A stretch of DNA of 64,000 bases, taken from the sequence record OZ346222.1; one strand, written 5' to 3'. How positions within the stretch are numbered: the stretch's first letter is position 1; each line of letters opens with the position of its first letter. The stretch comes from a phage. Below the pieces are notes generated by a model that was given only the letters and a program-made list of their open reading frames with translations, was not told the origin of the DNA and ran no database searches. The position numbers and the translations under genes are program-made. This document shows positions 4,465-56,937 of this stretch, piece after piece.

Positions 4465-4779
4465 GTGGAGTTGGATTTGGCGGCATTGTACGGTATCTGC
4501 ATGGGTACCGTTGTCCCGATCTGTGTATGGGCTTTCAACCAGTGGCACACCAAATGGAAAGGCATTTCCAAGAGGTTGGATGAACTGGAGAAAGACCTCA
4601 TCTTAGTGAAAAACAGTATGGTTACAAAAGATAAACTTGATTCCGTTATCGAGACCCGGTTAAGTAAGCTAGAGGCCGATATTAACGACCTTAAGCAGGA
4701 TGTCAGGACAGATGTCTCCGGTATCCGAGCTGATGTACAAAAGATTTTGCACATGCTCGTAGAGCATAGTAAAAGGTAA
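4465..4779 (+). CDS. membrane-anchored coiled-coil protein (i-spanin-like topology)
   Basis: GTG start 4 nt after AAGAGGAGG; N-terminal hydrophobic segment (ALYGICMGTVVPICVWAF) followed by heptad-rich coiled coil; topology resembles Rz-type spanins but no homology was established. Confidence 0.35.
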   Translation: MELDLAALYGICMGTVVPICVWAFNQWHTKWKGISKRLDELEKDLILVKNSMVTKDKLDSVIETRLSKLEADINDLKQDVRTDVSGIRADVQKILHMLVEHSKR

Positions 4780-5923: not shown

Positions 5924-6190
5924 ATGAAACTAACTCAGTTTTTATGGGGACTGGTTGCGGCATCTGATGACCCTACGAAAGTATCCCAAACTAAGCTATG
6001 GTCGAACATAGGCATGGCGGTGATGACTGGGGTGTTTATTCATATGGGGTATAATGATACGCTTCCTGAATGGTATGCGTGGATATACGCGCCTTCAGTA
6101 GCTTGCCCCCAGCTTATTAGCAAATTCATCTCGCTCCGGTGGGGTTGCCAGCACCCTGACCACGTTAAAAACGAAGAGCAAAAAGCTTAA
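5924..6190 (+). CDS. small membrane protein (holin-like?)
   Basis: 88 aa with 2-3 hydrophobic segments and a charged C-terminus (KNEEQKA); location next to fiber genes; function inferred from topology only. Confidence 0.3.
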   Translation: MKLTQFLWGLVAASDDPTKVSQTKLWSNIGMAVMTGVFIHMGYNDTLPEWYAWIYAPSVACPQLISKFISLRWGCQHPDHVKNEEQKA

Positions 6191-20914: not shown

Positions 20915-20943
20915 TTGACTTTACTCTAACTCCACAATATAGT
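20915..20943 (+). promoter_or_regulatory. sigma70-type promoter for rightward gene block
   Basis: TTGACT-17 nt-TATAGT in the divergent intergenic region about 40 nt upstream of the 20984 start. Confidence 0.5.
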
Positions 20944-23212: not shown

Positions 23213-23482
23213 ATGTTATACCAGCAATATGAACTTCGTGCAGAAAAAGAGTTAAATTTTGACAAAGATATTCACAGATATTATTATGGGAAAGTTAGAG
23301 GGCAAGCAAGAAAGTGTACTCCAACACTCTTTTATGCCAGCAGACGACTAGCGCCAGAAGAGGCAACAGCAGAAAGGGTTGCGTACAACTGGAGAGTCAC
23401 GTATGATATTGACAGATTCGATGTGATATCTGTTTTGGAAAACTTTGAAAACACTTACACACAAGTAGAGGACTTTTACTAA
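23213..23482 (+). CDS. hypothetical protein
   Basis: 89-aa ORF, RBS GGAG upstream. Confidence 0.5.
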   Translation: MLYQQYELRAEKELNFDKDIHRYYYGKVRGQARKCTPTLFYASRRLAPEEATAERVAYNWRVTYDIDRFDVISVLENFENTYTQVEDFY

Positions 23483-24666
23483 TGTCAAGAAACGTATTCG
23501 AAAGTGGTCAAATCACTGTCCGTGAGTTGCCAGCTATTATTCAGTTTGCCCAACGTCATAGCCGATCTGTCCTAATTTTGGGACCAATGGGTGTGGGTAA
23601 AAGCCAGGTGATGAAGCAGATCGCTGATAATATGTTCGGTGAGCGAGATGACAACCTTGTTGACGTGCGACTGTCAGATAAAGATCCTGCCGACTTATCT
23701 GGGCTACCTATCCCTGTAGAAGCGGATGGAACTACACGTACAGTGTTTGCAATTCCAGAATTTTGGCCTGCGGATCCTGACTGGAGCGGAATTATCTTTC
23801 TGGATGAGCTCACTCATGCAGATAACTACCTGCAAAAGGTTGCAATGCAAATTATGCTTGACCACAAGTGCGGCACCTATGCATTCCCTAAGGGTTCTGT
23901 TTTTGTGGCTGCGGGTAACCGTTCTACAGATGGTGCGGTTCTTTCGGCGCTCGAAGCCCCTCTGGCTAACCGTTTTATCATTGTAGAGGTTACAAGCAAT
24001 GCAGAGGTGTTTATTGAGGACTACGCATTCCTCAACGGGGTTCACTCCTCTGTAATTGGGTATCTGAAAAGAGTTCCATCAGCTATTGATAATTATGAGG
24101 CTATGGCTGAGATTAATTGTCCATCTTTTGCCACACCACGATCTTGGGTTGCTGCATCTGACATCTTGCACGATTTTGACAGCGGTATTATTTCTGACGC
24201 TATGGCCCGTGTTCTTCTACAAGGTGCTATTGGTCACACTGCAGCGGTAGAGATCTGGACTTACCACACCAAGAAACGTAATTTACCGGAAATCGGTCGG
24301 ATTATGGCAGGTGGCTGCAAAGAATACGTAGGTCCTAAGCAGCCAGACATTTTGTGGATTCTTGGATCTGAAGGTTGTATCGCTATTCGCAATATGATGG
24401 AAAATGCAAGTATCTCCGACGAAGATCTTGTTAGCTGTGTGGCAAACTTCCTCGATTTCCTTTGGGAAAATTTCAAGGACGAGAACCGAGATTTTGTATT
24501 CTCAGTCTTTATGGCGATGATGAAACCTAACGCCTTAGGAAATGCCTTGCTTATCGGTAAAGGGCGTGACAAGATTGTTGCTCAGTTGATCAAAGCATAT
24601 CCAAACCTGATGAAGATTGTAAAAGAGTTTGGTGAAGAGTTTAGCGCCATTTTGGCTAAAGCTTAA
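23482..24666 (+). CDS. AAA+ ATPase, MoxR-like
   Basis: 394 aa; Walker A GPMGVGKS, Walker B IIFLDELTHA; size and motifs typical of MoxR/CbbQ-type ATPases that pair with vWA proteins. Confidence 0.65.
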   Translation: MSRNVFESGQITVRELPAIIQFAQRHSRSVLILGPMGVGKSQVMKQIADNMFGERDDNLVDVRLSDKDPADLSGLPIPVEADGTTRTVFAIPEFWPADPDWSGIIFLDELTHADNYLQKVAMQIMLDHKCGTYAFPKGSVFVAAGNRSTDGAVLSALEAPLANRFIIVEVTSNAEVFIEDYAFLNGVHSSVIGYLKRVPSAIDNYEAMAEINCPSFATPRSWVAASDILHDFDSGIISDAMARVLLQGAIGHTAAVEIWTYHTKKRNLPEIGRIMAGGCKEYVGPKQPDILWILGSEGCIAIRNMMENASISDEDLVSCVANFLDFLWENFKDENRDFVFSVFMAMMKPNALGNALLIGKGRDKIVAQLIKAYPNLMKIVKEFGEEFSAILAKA

Positions 24667-24675
24667 GGGGGTTGT

Positions 24676-25056
24676 ATGGCTAAAGTAGGTAAGCGGGGAA
24701 ACTACCTGGTGGTATTGACCGAGGAGCCGGAGAAGGAGTACGAGTGCAGCTCCACTTGCGTGATCGATATCCGAGAAAAGGATGTGGATGAAATCTGGTT
24801 TGAAATATTAGACGCTTGCGACAGCAGTGATTATTTCTTCATCTATGTCAACGATAAGGCTGGATTCTTCCATGACGACGGAGAGTTGCCGTATGAAATC
24901 TATGAACTTGTAGAGGCTTGCCATCGTGGAGATGCGGAGTTGTTTGGCCTACGGCTGAAAAGCGGTAAATTCTTCTATCAAGATGAGTGCATGAATCTTC
25001 ATAACTTTGTAGAGGGAACTTGCAACGATGGAGAGATTTTGGCACACTACGATTAA
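24676..25056 (+). CDS. hypothetical acidic protein
   Basis: 126-aa ORF, Asp/Glu-rich; RBS GGGGG upstream. Confidence 0.5.
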   Translation: MAKVGKRGNYLVVLTEEPEKEYECSSTCVIDIREKDVDEIWFEILDACDSSDYFFIYVNDKAGFFHDDGELPYEIYELVEACHRGDAELFGLRLKSGKFFYQDECMNLHNFVEGTCNDGEILAHYD

Positions 25057-25065
25057 TTTCTAAGA

Positions 25066-25096
25066 CCTCCCCCGCTTCGGCGGGGATTTTCTATTT
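25066..25096 (+). terminator. rho-independent terminator
   Basis: CCCCCGC-TTCG-GCGGGG hairpin followed by ATTTTCTATTT. Confidence 0.55.
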
Positions 25097-25105
25097 GGAG
25101 TCATT

Positions 25106-25606
25106 GTGAAAATTAAGATCTTTGCTATTATTTTGAGCGCACTTTTATCGCTGCCTGTTGTTGCAGCACCAAAACAAAAAGTATATCATACTTGCAAGCC
25201 ATCAGATACTAAGGAAAACATTCTGGCATGCAATATCTACAGGGAAGCTAGAGGAGATGGCACGATGGGTATGCTGGCATCTGGGTTTGCCACACTAAAC
25301 AGGAAATCCCACCCTAAATACCCAGACACTATAAGAAAGATTGTCTACCAACCTAACCAGTTTTCGTGGACAAACCACGGCAAAACTTTTAAGGTGACAG
25401 AAAAAGATTCATGGGATCACGCTAAAAGTCTTGCAAAGATGCTTCTAAAGGTCTATAATAACAACCATGTTGCATACATGGCTATGGACATAACAGGTGG
25501 AGCAACACACTACCATACAACCAAAGTACGACCGAAATGGGCAAAAAAGATGCAGAGGACAGCTCAATTCGGGAGCCATATCTACTACAAGGAGCGCAAT
25601 AAATGA
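25106..25606 (+). CDS. secreted cell-wall hydrolase, SleB/CwlJ-like
   Basis: GTG start 5 nt after GGAG; N-terminal signal peptide (MKIKIFAIILSALLSLPVVAAP); core YREARGDG...LNRKSHPKYPDTIRKIVYQPNQFSW resembles the SleB-type hydrolase signature. Confidence 0.55.
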   Translation: MKIKIFAIILSALLSLPVVAAPKQKVYHTCKPSDTKENILACNIYREARGDGTMGMLASGFATLNRKSHPKYPDTIRKIVYQPNQFSWTNHGKTFKVTEKDSWDHAKSLAKMLLKVYNNNHVAYMAMDITGGATHYHTTKVRPKWAKKMQRTAQFGSHIYYKERNK

Positions 25607-27585
25607 TCGTAAACAGTAATGAAACTAAAGCGGTACTAACCGGGAATATGGAGGTCACCAGGGGCTCAATTTCTCTGAACAAAGAGACTTTTGGGCTAAT
25701 CATTAAAGGGATTTACGAAGATAAGGTGCTGGCAAGCTGCCGTGAACCAATCTTCAATGCCGTGGACTCCCATGTTGAGTCTGGACGGGGTGATGTACCG
25801 ATCATTATTCACTCTCCTACAGACCTTGAACCATACTTCTTTGTGCAGGACGTTGGATTGGGCATGTCAGAAGAGATGGTCCGCAACACTTTCATGAACC
25901 TCGGGGAGTCAACCAAGCGCAACAGCAACGCTCTGGTAGGTAATAAAGGTGTTGGTTCAAAGGCTCCGTTCAGCATGGTGGACACTTTCGATGTTATCAG
26001 TGTGCACAATGGTGTTGAAAGCACATATCTATTGTTCTTGGATCAGGGTATCCCAAACGTTACCAAGATCCGTGAGCGGAAGACTGAAGAGCACAACGGG
26101 GTAAAAGTTCAGTTCCATGTTAAGAAAGAGCATGTCCTGAAATATCGCACTGCTATTGCATCGTGCTTACGCTATGCGAAGTTTCCGTTCATCGTCACCG
26201 ATCCTATGACCAGTAAGATGTTAGAAGGTGACAAGGTTGAGGCACAGTATCATTACGAGAAGGATGGCTGGAAAATGACCATCCTGAAAGGTTATACCAG
26301 TTCTGATGAGAGCCGTGTTGTGATGGGTCACCAACCTTACCGCTCCAAGTTCCTGGAGACATTGACCGATTACCCTGCAATCTGCGTGGAAATTCCTATT
26401 GGGGATTGCAATATTAACCCTGGGCGTGAATGGACCATAGAGGGCCATGACGACGGTGGATTCCAGGATCGCCTGGAGGCCTTTGTCAAAGAAGGTATAC
26501 GTCTTCGCGGGGCAGAAGTTGTTGCAGAACTGGAGACGGCAAAAACCTCCGCAGAAGCACGTGAAATGATGAAGAATAGTGGAGTGTTCGGACACATCTT
26601 CGGCAAAAACTTTATGTGGAACCGTTGGGAAGAAACAGGGCTTGGCGACTTAGGCGATTGTGAAATTTTCGCTGGCGGCTTAAATAAAGGCCGCATAGGC
26701 TATGCTCGTTACGGAAAGTCGGAGTTCTTACGAGGTGTATACCTTGTATTTAACGACGGAGACGGCAAATATAACCGGAATAAGTGTAACTACTTAAGCG
26801 AGATCACCGGACGCAACGTTTTCTATTGCCGGAACACGGATCTGGTGAAAGAGTTTAAAGAGGCGGCACACCATCCGTTCTTTGCAGATACGGTCAAATT
26901 GTTATCGGAGCTTCCACGCCGACCTGCGAAGAAAGGTGAAACCAAAACTCGTTACGAGCCAGGCTACTGGGTTAAGAAGCTTAGAGAGGATGGCTACTTC
27001 CATCGTGAGCGCCTCACGAAGGCAGAGTTCAAGAAGATTAAGCATTGCATCCCTTATGAGGGGGATATCCAACGGGGAAGCTGCTGGCTGGGCCAGATGA
27101 GTAACATCTACCAGCAAAATTATGACCGTGTGCGTGCGGCACTCCAGATTCCTGAAGGGGAAGACCTGTACCTGGTATCAGAATCCCGTCTGCTTTGGAC
27201 TGATCCTGATTGCCAGTATGTTACAGAGAAAAATGTGGAACATTTGTTGAAAGAGGACGCCTGGAAATTCTTACTGACTCGCGCAGCAAATGAAACTTCA
27301 TATGACAACCTGTATAGACAATTAGGGAAAATTATCCCCATGCAGGATTTTGGAAATTATCGGCCACATTTCCACAAGTGGGAAGGTAACACCGCGTGGA
27401 AGCACAGTGAGCTAAATCATCGTGCCAAAATCTTAATCGCCAACCGGGTTAAGTGCGGGAAGGCCTATATTGCAAGATTGGAAAAGAAATATCCACTTTT
27501 GAAGCATGTGGGCTTGAAATATTGGGACACTTCTGCTATGATTGAATACCGTGAACTGATCGATACAAAGAATAACATCAAATAA
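25603..27585 (+). CDS. rIIA-like protein with N-terminal GHKL-type ATPase fold
   Basis: 660 aa; FVQDVGLGMSEE (DxGxG box) and GNKGVGSKAPF (GxxGxG box) in N-terminal 130 aa match the Bergerat ATP-binding fold found in phage rIIA proteins. Confidence 0.45.
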   Translation: MIVNSNETKAVLTGNMEVTRGSISLNKETFGLIIKGIYEDKVLASCREPIFNAVDSHVESGRGDVPIIIHSPTDLEPYFFVQDVGLGMSEEMVRNTFMNLGESTKRNSNALVGNKGVGSKAPFSMVDTFDVISVHNGVESTYLLFLDQGIPNVTKIRERKTEEHNGVKVQFHVKKEHVLKYRTAIASCLRYAKFPFIVTDPMTSKMLEGDKVEAQYHYEKDGWKMTILKGYTSSDESRVVMGHQPYRSKFLETLTDYPAICVEIPIGDCNINPGREWTIEGHDDGGFQDRLEAFVKEGIRLRGAEVVAELETAKTSAEAREMMKNSGVFGHIFGKNFMWNRWEETGLGDLGDCEIFAGGLNKGRIGYARYGKSEFLRGVYLVFNDGDGKYNRNKCNYLSEITGRNVFYCRNTDLVKEFKEAAHHPFFADTVKLLSELPRRPAKKGETKTRYEPGYWVKKLREDGYFHRERLTKAEFKKIKHCIPYEGDIQRGSCWLGQMSNIYQQNYDRVRAALQIPEGEDLYLVSESRLLWTDPDCQYVTEKNVEHLLKEDAWKFLLTRAANETSYDNLYRQLGKIIPMQDFGNYRPHFHKWEGNTAWKHSELNHRAKILIANRVKCGKAYIARLEKKYPLLKHVGLKYWDTSAMIEYRELIDTKNNIK

Positions 27586-27595
27586 GGAGACCAAG

Positions 27596-28801
27596 ATGAT
27601 TTTCATCTACGAACATTTCAAAACCCGTAAAGAAGCACGAGACCGCCGTGCAGAACTTGAGAAGAAGGGTTTCACATGTGCCATTGAGAAAGGCGACACA
27701 ACCTGGACACTGGCAGTGGGTGCCCCAGAGTTGTTCGATCCTGACCGTGACAGCGTCTGCTACACCCGTGAGGATTTTGAAACCCGCGAAGAGGCCCGTT
27801 TATCCCGCTATGGATTGGAAGATAATGGTAAGTACGCCATGATCTTAGACTTAGGCGAAGGTTCCGTTAAACGTTGGGGCGTGGTATACCCACTGTGTGT
27901 TGTTCACGGTGTGGGGTTCACTGGGGTGGCAATCAAGTCAGAAGAACCTTTAGTAGAAGTTAAAGATCCGGTGCTGGAGGTGGTGAGCAGTGTGTCTCAG
28001 CAACAAACTCGAAGCATCGAGCCTTTGGTAGTTATTTGTGGGGAACTCCTCCAGATCACCTGCAACGAAGGCATTTTTGAAATTCGCCGCAGCGAAAGTG
28101 AGGAAGTTTACCAGAAAGTCTTCGACCATATCTCTGTTCAGGAATATGACGAGGCAATTGGTGAAATCCTTGTCTGGCTGGAACGCAAGAATGAGTTCAC
28201 CACACTTGCAGACAACCTGATCATGAAAGATGGTAAGCTCTACTACTACGGTGTAGAGATGCGATCCACCATTGCAAAGAAAATTGAGAAAGATTATGCA
28301 GACGGAACGCTGGATGACCGCTATGTGAAATTCCTCGTTCGCCTGCTACGCAATCCTTCTGCAAAATCTGTAAACATGCTCTACGATTTTATGCAGGCCA
28401 ATGATATTCAGATTGCAGAAGATGGTCGAATCATTTGCTACAAAGGGGTTCAGTTTAACGGTAGCAAGTGGGTGGATTGGCACAGTGGTAAAGTCCCACA
28501 ATACCAAGGTGCTTTTGTATCCATGCCTCGTAACTTTGTAGAGGATGATCCTGAAGCTGCGTGCTCCTATGGCTTACACTGCGCCAGCAAAGAGTATGCG
28601 AAGAGCTACGGCACTGTAATGCCTGTCATGGTTGACCCTGCAGATGTGGTTAGTGTGCCATACCAACACAATAGCGCTAAGTGCCGTGCATGCCGCTATG
28701 AGATTGTGGTAGCTCCGGAAGCACGCAAGGACGGAGACCCGATTGAATACGTGGTTGACCGAGACGGTAACACTATCGACATTCTTTACGAGGAGGCGTA
28801 A
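27596..28801 (+). CDS. hypothetical protein (position consistent with an rIIB-like partner)
   Basis: 401-aa ORF immediately downstream of rIIA-like gene, RBS AAGGAGA; no diagnostic motif, rIIB assignment is positional only. Confidence 0.35.
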   Translation: MIFIYEHFKTRKEARDRRAELEKKGFTCAIEKGDTTWTLAVGAPELFDPDRDSVCYTREDFETREEARLSRYGLEDNGKYAMILDLGEGSVKRWGVVYPLCVVHGVGFTGVAIKSEEPLVEVKDPVLEVVSSVSQQQTRSIEPLVVICGELLQITCNEGIFEIRRSESEEVYQKVFDHISVQEYDEAIGEILVWLERKNEFTTLADNLIMKDGKLYYYGVEMRSTIAKKIEKDYADGTLDDRYVKFLVRLLRNPSAKSVNMLYDFMQANDIQIAEDGRIICYKGVQFNGSKWVDWHSGKVPQYQGAFVSMPRNFVEDDPEAACSYGLHCASKEYAKSYGTVMPVMVDPADVVSVPYQHNSAKCRACRYEIVVAPEARKDGDPIEYVVDRDGNTIDILYEEA

Positions 28802-52834: not shown

Positions 52835-53206
52835 ATGGAATTTATTATTTTGGCTGTAGTAGTTGCCTTGTTCAACGCCTGGATCGCTGGCAAGATGGGT
52901 AGATCCGCCTTTTTATGGTTTATTATATCTATTTTCCTGGGGGTGGTTGCAACTATTGTACTTGTTATCCTTGCAATTGTTGACAAGGGGAATAATAGAA
53001 AGGGTAAAGTATTTTCAGACCTGTACGACGCTCAAACGTTTGTCAACGCCTATTATAGTGATCTTCCAGTCTCCCTACGCTGCAGCCTGGCACAACAAGT
53101 TTTCGATGAGGCTAAAACCAGAGATCAAGCCCATGAGATATGTTTAACTGAGGCGGATCGCCTATTTGAGAGGAATAGAAAATATGTGGGCCAACCGTTT
53201 AAATAA
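52835..53206 (+). CDS. membrane protein (two predicted TM helices)
   Basis: Start at ATG after AAAGAGG; hydrophobic spans FIILAVVVALFNAWIAG and FLWFIISIFLGVVATIVLVILAIV. Confidence 0.5.
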   Translation: MEFIILAVVVALFNAWIAGKMGRSAFLWFIISIFLGVVATIVLVILAIVDKGNNRKGKVFSDLYDAQTFVNAYYSDLPVSLRCSLAQQVFDEAKTRDQAHEICLTEADRLFERNRKYVGQPFK

Positions 53207-56507: not shown

Positions 56508-56792
56508 ATGAAAAAGATGATCGCAGTGGTTACCCTGGTTGTTGGACTTAATGCGCCTGTAATGGCTAAAGAGCTGGCAAAAGAGGTTAATCTAACGGAT
56601 ATTCATGCCGTCAATCAAATCGGGGTTACTTATCGCTTATGCCTTGCCGCTAAAACTTTTAAGGACGGCACAACAGAGTACTACGGATTCGAGGGTATCC
56701 GGTGCGGTGAGCTTGCTCGCGACCTTAAGGAAGATCCAGACCTGGAGGATCTGCCCATAACCGTGAACGGGAAAACTTACGTGAACCGTTAA
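56508..56792 (+). CDS. small secreted/periplasmic protein
   Basis: 94 aa; N-terminal signal peptide MKKMIAVVTLVVGLNAPVMA; RBS AAAGAGGATAGG. Confidence 0.55.
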   Translation: MKKMIAVVTLVVGLNAPVMAKELAKEVNLTDIHAVNQIGVTYRLCLAAKTFKDGTTEYYGFEGIRCGELARDLKEDPDLEDLPITVNGKTYVNR

Positions 56793-56937
56793 CCATGAGA
56801 AAGATAATTATTACCATGGGGATCGTGGCGGCAATGTTGGCGATCTTTCCCTTTATGGTTAGGTATGTGCTGATTAATGTTGTCCTGGTAGTCAGCGATC
56901 TGGTGTTATATATTAACTCATTGTTTTAGGCGCGATA

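Follow-up and report, generated by a model that had tools for sequence, protein, structure and literature searches.

The SleB-type cell wall hydrolase encoded by this rV5-like phage (OZ346222.1) is probably an accessory enzyme that is exported by the Sec route, cleaves peptidoglycan and assists lysis, and not the main endolysin. The canonical endolysin of rV5-like phages is a lambda R-type enzyme rather than the SleB-like protein, and in relatives of the present phage it is encoded beyond the 64,000-nucleotide stretch analysed here (the window), which is less than half of a roughly 136-kb genome. The finding is largely an ordinary one, because the gene is the annotated 'cell wall hydrolase' of rV5-like coliphages and the main, lambda-type lysis enzyme lies elsewhere. 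The gene, its family and the dispersed lysis genes were already known, as were the signal peptide and the fact that a homologue is toxic in E. coli (Buttimer 2020). Its modest interest lies in the use of an exported SleB-type enzyme to a phage equipped with a separate endolysin, and in the identity of the rV5-like holin. Resolving these two points could inform the use of rV5-like phages, which are therapeutic candidates, and of their lysins.

Identity, fold and predicted catalytic residue

The hydrolase gene is real. In both the ORF list and the sequence as read directly, the frame coincides exactly with 25106..25606 on the + strand, its GTG is the earliest start possible 3' of the preceding in-frame stop, a Shine-Dalgarno sequence precedes it (Table 1), and the TGA stop overlaps the ATG of the rIIA homologue as ATGA. 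The coding sequence is identical at 501 of 501 nt to bas55_0064 of Escherichia phage JeffSchatz (Bas55), annotated as "putative cell wall hydrolase", and the identity extends over the 60 nt 5' of the gene. It is likewise rV5 gene 2, 'cell wall hydrolase', with which it agrees in length (166 aa), pI (10.0) and Pfam family as given in the rV5 table, and there is no detectable difference from either counterpart. Homologues were sought by tblastn against phage records and by an exhaustive search of cluster representatives, and about 116 phage records carry a copy that is at least 95% identical.

Table 1. Features of the hydrolase gene, its surroundings and candidate lysis genes in the window
Feature	Coordinates	Strand	Basis or remarks
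Product of 104 aa with N-terminal transmembrane segment, earlier spanin candidate	4465..4779	+	PHROG 5345, no functional label
Small conserved 88-aa protein in tail-fibre module, earlier holin candidate	5924..6190	+	PHROG 1322 'membrane protein'
Sigma-70-type promoter TTGACT-17-TATAGT, head of the unit running into hydrolase-rIIA-rIIB	20915..20943	+	Sequence equals rV5 promoter P010
Acidic, Cys-rich 126-aa protein, upstream of hydrolase	24676..25056	+	PHROG 12370
Intrinsic terminator directly 5' of hydrolase, CCCCGC-TTCG-GCGGGG then ATTTTCTATTT	25070..25096	+	Identical to rV5 Table S4 t003 (-16 kcal/mol)
Shine-Dalgarno GGAG of hydrolase	25097..25100	+	5 nt 5' of GTG; read from sequence
Exported SleB-type (Hydrolase_2) cell wall hydrolase, CDS	25106..25606	+	166 aa, GTG start; ORF call
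Predicted signal peptide, residues 1-20 (n MKIK, h IFAIILSALLSL, c PVVA; cut between VVA and AP)	25106..25165	+	Sequence rules
Predicted mature catalytic domain, residues 21-166, 16.9 kDa, pI about 9.95	25166..25603	+	Pfam, model, Foldseek
Cys30 codon, one of only two Cys	25193..25195	+	Sequence, Cys counts of relatives
Cys42 codon, five residues ahead of the catalytic Glu	25229..25231	+	Sequence, Cys pattern of relatives
Glu47 codon GAA, predicted catalytic, motif N-I-Y-R-E-A-R-G	25244..25246	+	SleB motif alignment
rIIA homologue, start overlapping hydrolase stop	25603..27585	+	PHROG 612, E=1e-124
rIIB homologue	27596..28801	+	ORF and PHROG match
Product of 123 aa with two N-terminal transmembrane segments, 'putative holin' (bas55_0113) in relative	52835..53206	+	Annotation

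The original prediction of a SleB-like hydrolase is borne out by several comparisons. Pfam Hydrolase_2 (PF07486) matches residues 51-161 over profile positions 2-100 of 100 with E=2.1e-19 and 70.4 bits against a gathering threshold of 27, and PHROG 938, labelled 'endolysin', is matched with E=1.6e-27. A sequence search of solved structures returned the catalytic domains of Bacillus SleB only (4F55, 4FET; E about 2e-6), and the same two entries were the only significant Foldseek matches in the PDB to an AlphaFold2 model of mean pLDDT 87.9 (probability 1.00; TM 0.74-0.79, target-normalised), which places the hydrolase in the SleB catalytic-domain fold. Because the segment 'YrEArGd' aligns with 'YgEsRGe' of SleB, Glu47 is the predicted catalytic residue. 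It is invariant in the homologue alignment and in 13 phage homologues, the motif is found in 143 of 150 family representatives, and the hydrolase retains the motif together with 17 invariant residues.

Bacillus SleB, a germination-specific lytic transglycosylase, thus shares with the hydrolase its fold and an aligned Glu in Y-x-E-[AS]-R-G at 24% identity, but it also has an N-terminal peptidoglycan-binding domain that the phage protein lacks: there is no second Pfam domain, and only about 30 residues separate the signal peptide from the catalytic domain. The TIGR02869 equivalog, which represents SleB proper, is not reached either (48.3 bits against 236.5, with profile positions 82-201 only). 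By analogy with SleB the chemistry is most likely that of a lytic transglycosylase. Bacillus SleB requires muramic-delta-lactam, which is absent from E. coli peptidoglycan, and the substrate of the hydrolase and the bond that it cleaves are therefore extrapolated; in a host without a muramic-delta-lactam cortex, its substrate specificity must differ from that of SleB.

Predicted export of the hydrolase

By sequence rules, which are the sole basis of the call, the N-terminus has the look of a classical, cleavable Sec signal peptide, in keeping with what had been proposed originally. The h-region IFAIILSALLSL is 12 residues long and strongly hydrophobic (Kyte-Doolittle 2.5-2.6), and the c-region PVVA places Val at -3, Ala at -1 and Pro at -4, followed by A21-P22. 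The protein is not a lipoprotein, because no Cys occurs before residue 30. A cleavable Sec signal, as predicted here, is a feature of muralytic enzymes of the Lys44 type, and the n/h/c signal with its V-x-A site sets the hydrolase apart from canonical holin-dependent endolysins, which are cytoplasmic and have no export signal.

All phage homologues inspected begin with a hydrophobic segment for export or anchoring, as do 135 of the 150 nearest 50%-cluster representatives, and signal peptides were recognised in the P0002 homologue (81% identical), PVP-SE1 gp243, KP12_56, Certrevirus F4M1E, phi92-like phages and T5.083. The sequence of this region varies among homologues while the n/h/c design is kept, and hence the signal peptide appears to be conserved as a property and not as a sequence, and to be normal for the hydrolase family. 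The cysteines point the same way. Two or four domain cysteines are found in 119 of 143 relatives, and 130 of the 143 have a Cys no more than five residues upstream of the motif, a pattern that seems typical of periplasmic proteins; in the present protein Cys30 and Cys42, near the active site, probably form a periplasmic disulfide.

Transcriptional setting and the other lysis genes

The hydrolase gene lies, as had been noted, between an acidic protein and rIIA. The acidic protein (pI 4.3 in the rV5 table) has no export signal, and its gene is separated from that of the hydrolase by the terminator. It was considered as a conserved partner or inhibitor of the hydrolase and rejected, the upstream genes in PVP-SE1, in F4M1E and in phi1_175008 and WPEC6, both phi92-like, being unrelated (15-20% identity). 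On the downstream side, Vequintavirus, PVP-SE1 and Klebsiella phage KP12 all have rIIA and then rIIB after the hydrolase. For rV5 a transcription unit '10-1-238-164' has been proposed (PMC3606486), and in the window the rV5 late-promoter motif TGGTAAAATA has 17 matches, none of them close to the hydrolase. Gene layout and promoter motifs thus suggest that the gene belongs to a non-late early/replication unit, in agreement with the module originally assigned to it; no transcriptome for Vequintavirus was found in the literature. There is no holin-like gene adjoining the hydrolase in Vequintavirus. A search for a small membrane ORF that overlaps the gene at its 3' end, as in Certrevirus, found none, the only hydrophobic overlap being antisense (25482..25703, - strand) and treated as spurious.

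The hydrolase had been described as the sole recognisable peptidoglycan hydrolase in the window, and this agrees with the curated annotation of JeffSchatz, which is collinear and 99% identical. Beyond the window, JeffSchatz has the gene of a 156-aa endolysin (bas55_0204) closely related to lambda R (PDB 1AM7, E=6e-57). It equals rV5 gp89, the 'obvious lysin' of rV5 (PMC3606486), and lytic activity has been shown for purified LysECP26, which is 98% identical to the rV5 endolysin (PMC9728275). About 92 phage records have a lysin of this type with at least 80% identity, among them rV5, O157 typing phage 5 and A6-1, which carry the hydrolase gene as well. An Rz/Rz1-type spanin pair adjoins the terminase in JeffSchatz (PHROG 4297, E=4e-47; PHROG 1267, E=2e-22). 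Judged by relatives, both the R-type endolysin and the Rz/Rz1 spanins map outside the window, and the present genome probably carries the R-type lysin, its relatives being 98-100% identical over the window. The two enzymes occur in the same genomes and are alike in cleaving glycan strands with a single Glu, by prediction in the case of the hydrolase. The R-type endolysin (rV5 gp89, LysECP26), however, is of a family unrelated to that of the hydrolase, aligns at its N-terminus with the signal-less lambda R, and is of proven lytic action.

Originally a holin-independent, exported endolysin or a dispersed lysis system had been suggested. The dispersal stands, and it is already published for rV5-like phages; the reading as the phage's holin-independent endolysin is not supported, given the R-type endolysin in the 99% identical relative, and it arose because under half of the genome was seen. 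The canonical cassette that had been named as counter-evidence is half there, in that another part of the genome does hold a canonical endolysin, though not one grouped with a holin. Candidate holins for rV5-like phages now number three rivals across the literature and annotations, namely rV5 gp129 and the products of 52835..53206 and 5924..6190. The product of 5924..6190, the earlier holin candidate, has no segment above the transmembrane threshold used, and its role as a holin is neither supported nor excluded. Labels for it and for the product of 4465..4779 in hundreds of relatives read only 'membrane' or 'hypothetical' protein. The latter, for which no lipoprotein partner was found, is not the spanin, because the Rz/Rz1-type pair adjoins the terminase, outside the window. 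Its sequence beyond the transmembrane segment reads as a coiled coil.

Proposed role and alternatives

Under the reading that we prefer, an accessory exported enzyme, the hydrolase would be transcribed from the promoter at the head of the non-late replication unit, and transcription would have to read through the strong terminator directly in front of the gene. The need for read-through and the GTG start would both keep the level of the hydrolase low. The precursor would be led by its 20-residue signal through SecYEG and cut by signal peptidase I after Ala20, which, by sequence rules, would yield a basic, soluble periplasmic protein of 16.9 kDa. There, with the Cys30-Cys42 disulfide formed, it would cut the glycan strand of peptidoglycan by means of the single Glu47, the fold and residue being predicted in silico and the chemistry carried over from Bacillus SleB. 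The least certain step is the last one, in which the periplasm would be pre-loaded with hydrolase activity for which no holin is needed and which would assist or accelerate lysis, while lysis itself would be driven by the separate lambda R-type endolysin, a putative holin and the Rz/Rz1 spanins.

Several known enzymes bear on this proposal. T5.083 and the homologues of phi92-like phages (Stephanstirmvirinae) likewise consist of one small Hydrolase_2 domain behind a classical signal peptide, for which cleavage would fall between ...SSQA and SH (T5.083) or between ...IAEA and AN (phi1_175008), but they are 36-43% identical to the hydrolase, have other neighbours and do not lie beside rII. A genome with two lytic enzymes is a recurring arrangement in such virulent phages: the phi92-like ones have a Phage_lysozyme protein and a Hydrolase_2 protein, and in T5 an L-Ala-D-Glu peptidase serves as endolysin besides T5.083. 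Lys44 of the Oenococcus phage fOg44 and the SAR endolysins P1 Lyz and R21 each act as the only endolysin of the phage concerned. They reach the wall by the Sec route without a holin, as is proposed for the hydrolase, and differ from it in that its signal looks like an ordinary cleaved one and in that a second, cytoplasmic endolysin exists. SleB-like homologues have been noted in all genera of the Vequintavirinae (PMC7344957; PMC9769974). Those of Certrevirus (CB7_83, CR3_087, P7_95) share with the present phage the family, the signal peptide, the lack of a classic lysis cassette and spanins beside the terminase, the F4M1E homologue being 49% identical to the hydrolase. Certrevirus differs in that the 3' end of the hydrolase gene is overlapped by the gene of a class II holin candidate, 65 aa long and with two transmembrane segments, and in lacking rII, whereas in the present phage rIIA and rIIB follow the hydrolase and there is no such small membrane protein. 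CB7_83, which has a signal peptide, was toxic in E. coli ('data not shown'; Buttimer 2020, PMC7344957). A bacterial SleB-like effector, T6EC3, exerts its action on E. coli in the periplasm, where it makes the cells round up and burst, and its toxicity depends on the catalytic Glu (PMC11148199); it is unlike the hydrolase in being delivered by a T6SS and paired with an immunity protein, and its homology is one of structure only.

That the hydrolase is after all the principal endolysin, exported by Sec without a holin and activated on membrane depolarisation as in Lys44 of fOg44, we regard as quite improbable. It is the only peptidoglycan hydrolase within the window and has a signal peptide, PHROG 938 and many annotations of homologues use the word 'endolysin', CR3_087 is described as 'implicated in host lysis', the CB7 homologue is toxic, and the 65-aa protein of Certrevirus could speak for a holin partner there. 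Against these stand the demonstrated activity of the lambda R-type endolysin of relatives, the position of the gene in a non-late unit behind a terminator, the lack of an adjoining holin-like gene in Vequintavirus, and the separate endolysins of phi92-like phages and of T5. The signal region bears more directly on a SAR endolysin, tethered to the inner membrane and released by pinholin depolarisation, and makes this reading more doubtful still. A hydrophobic N-terminal segment is present, and in PaoP5_032, from a Pakpunavirus, no cleavage site is evident after the N-terminal transmembrane segment. SAR domains, however, are uncleaved and Gly/Ala-rich, with about 50-65% Gly/Ala/Ser/Thr, whereas the h-region of the hydrolase has only 33% and contains much Ile, Leu and Phe; Pro at -4, the V-x-A site and the lack of an adjoining pinholin-like gene weigh in the same direction. 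We give hardly any credence to a virion-associated entry lysin or a catalytically dead wall-binding protein. Phages of the same type do have several wall-active virion proteins, but the hydrolase has a Sec signal peptide, its gene lies outside the structural module and it does not appear in the set of virion proteins that mass spectrometry identified for rV5, while the retained catalytic motif and invariant residues argue against a dead protein.

A less likely reading that nevertheless deserves some weight is that of an enzyme which remodels the wall from the periplasm early on and takes no direct part in lysis, acting in envelope loosening, in superinfection interference or as a partner of rIIA/rIIB, and an early, non-lysis task fits an early-made and immediately exported enzyme just as well as help in lysis does. 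In its favour are the location in an early/replication unit, the overlap with the rIIA start, the hydrolase-rIIA-rIIB order kept in Vequintavirus, PVP-SE1 and KP12, and the separate endolysin that all these phages already have. T5.083 also lies in a non-structural block (RNase H, exonuclease, tRNAs) with annotated promoters, which we take to be the T5 early region, and no publication on T5.083 was found in the literature. The link to rII is missing, however, in Certrevirus, phi92-like phages and T5. The broader idea that small, Sec-exported SleB-fold enzymes, made from non-late genes beside a canonical endolysin in unrelated rV5-, phi92- and T5-like coliphages, have a dedicated non-lysis role in the envelope seems unlikely to us; if true, that role could be early peptidoglycan remodelling, competitor exclusion or, in the Vequintavirinae, functional pairing with rIIA/rIIB. 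In E. coli, SleB-fold enzymes that are exported cause lysis or toxicity, as CB7_83 and T6EC3 indicate, and by this analogy a lysis helper would be the simpler fit.

A SleB-type hydrolase with a signal peptide design

The 6 kb around the SleB-like hydrolase gene share 99.0% identity with Escherichia phage JeffSchatz (BASEL Bas55, genus Vequintavirus) and 97-99% with many further rV5-like phages. By comparison with JeffSchatz the window represents about 33.4-97.4 kb of a 135.6-kb genome, with more than half of the genome outside it. The gene and the 60 nt before it show no single-base difference from bas55_0064 ('putative cell wall hydrolase') and its upstream sequence in JeffSchatz, and it is the same gene as gene 2 of phage rV5, a 'cell wall hydrolase' of 166 aa and pI 10.0 with PF07486 (Kropinski et al., PMC3606486). 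Databases and the literature already contain this gene, its signal peptide and the scattered lysis genes. Identity of 97-98% to this rV5-like coliphage is also found in 16-23 GenBank records under the name 'Campylobacter phage' (MG0656xx, host C. jejuni), whose host labels look doubtful.

The SleB-like gene named in the original prediction is real and its coordinates agree exactly (see table), with a GGAG ribosome-binding site 5 nt 5' of the GTG and a TGA stop that shares bases with the ATG start of the following gene (ATGA). In profile searches the product hit Hydrolase_2 (PF07486, 'Cell Wall Hydrolase'; E=2.1e-19, 70.4 bits vs a threshold of 27) and PHROG 938 (E=1.6e-27). Searched by sequence, the whole set of solved structures gave no matches besides the SleB catalytic domains of Bacillus (4F55 and 4FET), and the intact motif N-I-Y-R-E47-A-R-G aligns with the catalytic-Glu motif of SleB. 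An AlphaFold2 model built from an alignment of 8 sequences was confident (mean pLDDT 87.9, pTM 0.80), and Foldseek against the PDB matched it to SleB only (TM 0.74-0.79, normalised to the target). By profile, motif and fold, therefore, the protein belongs to the Hydrolase_2/SleB-type catalytic-domain family. SleB proper was rejected as its identity, as it scores 48 bits vs an equivalog cut-off of 236.5 bits and is without the N-terminal peptidoglycan-binding domain.

The predicted signal peptide has a positively charged n-region (MKIK), a strongly hydrophobic h-region of 12 residues (IFAIILSALLSL) and a c-region V-V-A with Pro at -4, followed by Ala-Pro. Predicted cleavage after Ala20 agrees with the -3/-1 rule. 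A cut one residue further on would leave Pro at +1, a position where signal peptidase I does not tolerate it. Residues 1-29 contain no Cys, so the protein is not a lipoprotein. The predicted mature protein (146 aa, 16.9 kDa, pI about 9.95) contains exactly two Cys, one of them five residues before the catalytic Glu. Only 33% of the h-region is Gly, Ala, Ser or Thr, unlike signal-anchor-release (SAR) domains; judged by its sequence, the hydrolase lacks the defining features of both a SAR endolysin and a canonical holin-dependent endolysin and is built like a signal-peptide endolysin.

Features of the window and holin candidates of rV5-like phages
Feature	Position	Strand	Remarks
Candidate spanin, original prediction	4465..4779	+	104 aa
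Candidate holin, original prediction	5924..6190	+	88 aa
Sigma-70-type promoter	20915..20943	+	nearest strong one upstream of hydrolase
MoxR-type AAA ATPase	23482..24666	+	PHROG 1297, E=2e-110; replication unit, two genes upstream of hydrolase
Intrinsic terminator	25070..25096	+	strong; CCCCGC-TTCG-GCGGGG then T-run; ends about 10 nt before hydrolase start codon
Hydrolase ORF	25106..25606	+	166 aa, GTG start
Predicted signal peptide of hydrolase	residues 1-20		textbook layout; sequence rules and conservation
Sigma-70-like promoter match	25431..25459	+	TTGCAA-17-TATAAT, 10/12; inside hydrolase gene, about 145 nt before rIIA start
bas55_0113, putative holin (BASEL annotation)	52835..53206	+
Signal-peptide ORF	56508..56792	+	94 aa; MKKMIAVVTLVVGLNAPVMA|KE
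Very hydrophobic ORF	56795..56929	+	44 aa; directly 3' of the 94-aa ORF
rV5 gp129, putative holin (Kropinski 2013)	outside window		78 aa, two transmembrane segments

Homologues and gene context

The same signal design is kept across homologues despite differing N-terminal sequences, as seen in the signal ends of a homologue 81% identical (P0002, MKKFILAILLGILVSLPSFA|AT), PVP-SE1 gp243 (...TPVLA|KE), the homologues of Klebsiella phage KP12 (...TPVLA|KD), Certrevirus F4M1E (...ASALA|KE) and phi92-like phi1_175008 (...IAEA|AN), and T5.083 (...SSQA|SH). When 1.84 billion cluster representatives were searched exhaustively, 11,355 relatives appeared at E<=0.001 (2,961 at E<=1e-10). Among the best 150 of the 11,355, an N-terminal hydrophobic segment is present in 135 and the catalytic motif in 143, and 119 of these 143 have two or four Cys in the domain, as expected of periplasmic disulfide-bonded proteins. 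An export signal is therefore the rule for such enzymes and no peculiarity of this phage. Three metagenomic homologues (P0006, P0007 and P0009, 36-39% identical) have a lipoprotein-like N-terminus (...LFSTAS-C-D/E) in which the acidic residue after Cys is an inner-membrane retention signal in E. coli, which suggests a membrane-tethered variant. The Pakpunavirus homologue PaoP5_032 (L009; Pseudomonas phage PaoP5, 186 aa), which carries the annotation 'endolysin', begins with a transmembrane segment and lacks an obvious site for signal peptidase. It may be either anchored or of the SAR kind, in which case the export mode varies among SleB-like homologues.

The terminator before the hydrolase, t003 of rV5, leaves no room for a promoter, and the upstream promoter is rV5 P010, which heads the proposed unit 'genes 10-1-238-164' with replication genes (PMC3606486). 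No rV5 late-promoter motif was found near the hydrolase. We infer from this arrangement that the gene is transcribed with a non-late replication unit by terminator read-through, with the GTG start limiting the level further; a low level would be sensible because the product would be harmful in the periplasm. The promoter match inside the gene could give a rIIA/rIIB transcript that lacks the hydrolase; in total, promoter-like sites in this region are no more numerous than expected by chance.

The order hydrolase-rIIA-rIIB is kept in KP12 (KP12_57 vs rIIA of the window, 38% identical, E=4e-164) and, extended by the helicase, in PVP-SE1 across the ends of its linear record. In contrast, Certreviruses have no rII, and a 65-aa, two-transmembrane protein overlaps the hydrolase 3' end; neighbours also differ in phi92-like phages and T5, and the acidic protein encoded upstream shows no conservation from one genus to the next. 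Adjacency to rII is thus a trait of particular lineages and weak evidence of a functional link.

Lysis genes and the role of the hydrolase

The annotated JeffSchatz endolysin, bas55_0204 (156 aa, at 125 kb, outside the window), is closely related to lambda R lysozyme (PDB 1AM7, E=5.8e-57) and corresponds to rV5 gp89, which Kropinski et al. called the 'obvious lysin' (PMC3606486). Purified LysECP26, which shares 98% identity with the rV5 endolysin, is lytic to permeabilised Gram-negative cells (PMC9728275). The R-type lysin occurs at >=80% identity in about 92 phage records, and rV5, O157 typing phage 5, rV5_ev146 and A6-1 carry both it and the SleB-like gene. An i-spanin/o-spanin pair (PHROG 4297, E=4e-47; PHROG 1267, E=2e-22) adjoins the terminase right where the JeffSchatz record begins. 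Scattered lysis genes have already been stated for rV5, PVP-SE1 and Certrevirus, as have a signal peptide in the Certrevirus SleB-like protein and homologues in all Vequintavirinae genera (Buttimer et al., 2020, PMC7344957). The original observation of an exported-type hydrolase is confirmed. Its interpretation is partly supported: the lysis genes are dispersed, but the reading as a holin-independent endolysin is not upheld, since relatives encode an R-type endolysin and spanins elsewhere in the genome.

Because these phages have a canonical cytoplasmic endolysin and spanins, the hydrolase is read as an accessory muralytic enzyme that would reach the wall without a holin and assist lysis. Its precursor would be exported through Sec and cut after Ala20, the mature protein would probably gain a Cys30-Cys42 disulfide, and Glu47 would cleave glycan strands, the most likely mode being that of SleB, a lytic transglycosylase. 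SleB-fold enzymes that are exported are harmful to E. coli: expression of the homologue from Certrevirus was toxic ('data not shown', PMC7344957), and a SleB-like T6SS effector acting in the periplasm rounds and bursts the cells, its toxicity requiring the equivalent Glu (PMC11148199). A serious rival is an early enzyme without a lysis role, which the predicted replication-unit transcription would suit, whereas this toxicity fits a lysis helper more readily. The signal-peptide form would suit a principal endolysin, which is unlikely given the R-type lysin, and an N-terminal hydrophobic segment would suit a SAR endolysin, which is unlikely given the h-region composition. Roles as a virion lysin or as a catalytically dead protein are also unlikely, with signal design and catalytic residue both in place.

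Holin and spanin candidates

For the holin of rV5-like phages, BASEL, Kropinski 2013 and the original prediction give three mutually exclusive 'putative holin' assignments. rV5 gp129 adjoins a 174-aa 'putative glycosidase' (bas55_0168, PHROG 13467). The holin candidate of the original prediction found no support; its hydrophobic segments are weak, its tail is charged and its match, PHROG 1322, is labelled only 'membrane protein'; the protein is also present in phi92-like phages. The spanin candidate (PHROG 5345) has one N-terminal transmembrane segment, beyond which it reads as a coiled coil, and is not the spanin because it is without a lipoprotein partner and an Rz/Rz1-type pair is found elsewhere. 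Both genes are kept across Vequintavirinae between tail-fibre genes of the tail-fibre module, and relatives label their products only 'membrane' or 'hypothetical' protein. T4 gene t comes after gene 38, so a holin within a tail-fibre operon is not absurd. In a small-gene region, the 94-aa ORF, which has a classical signal design and no match in an NCBIfam search, and the 44-aa ORF form a predicted second exported or membrane pair.
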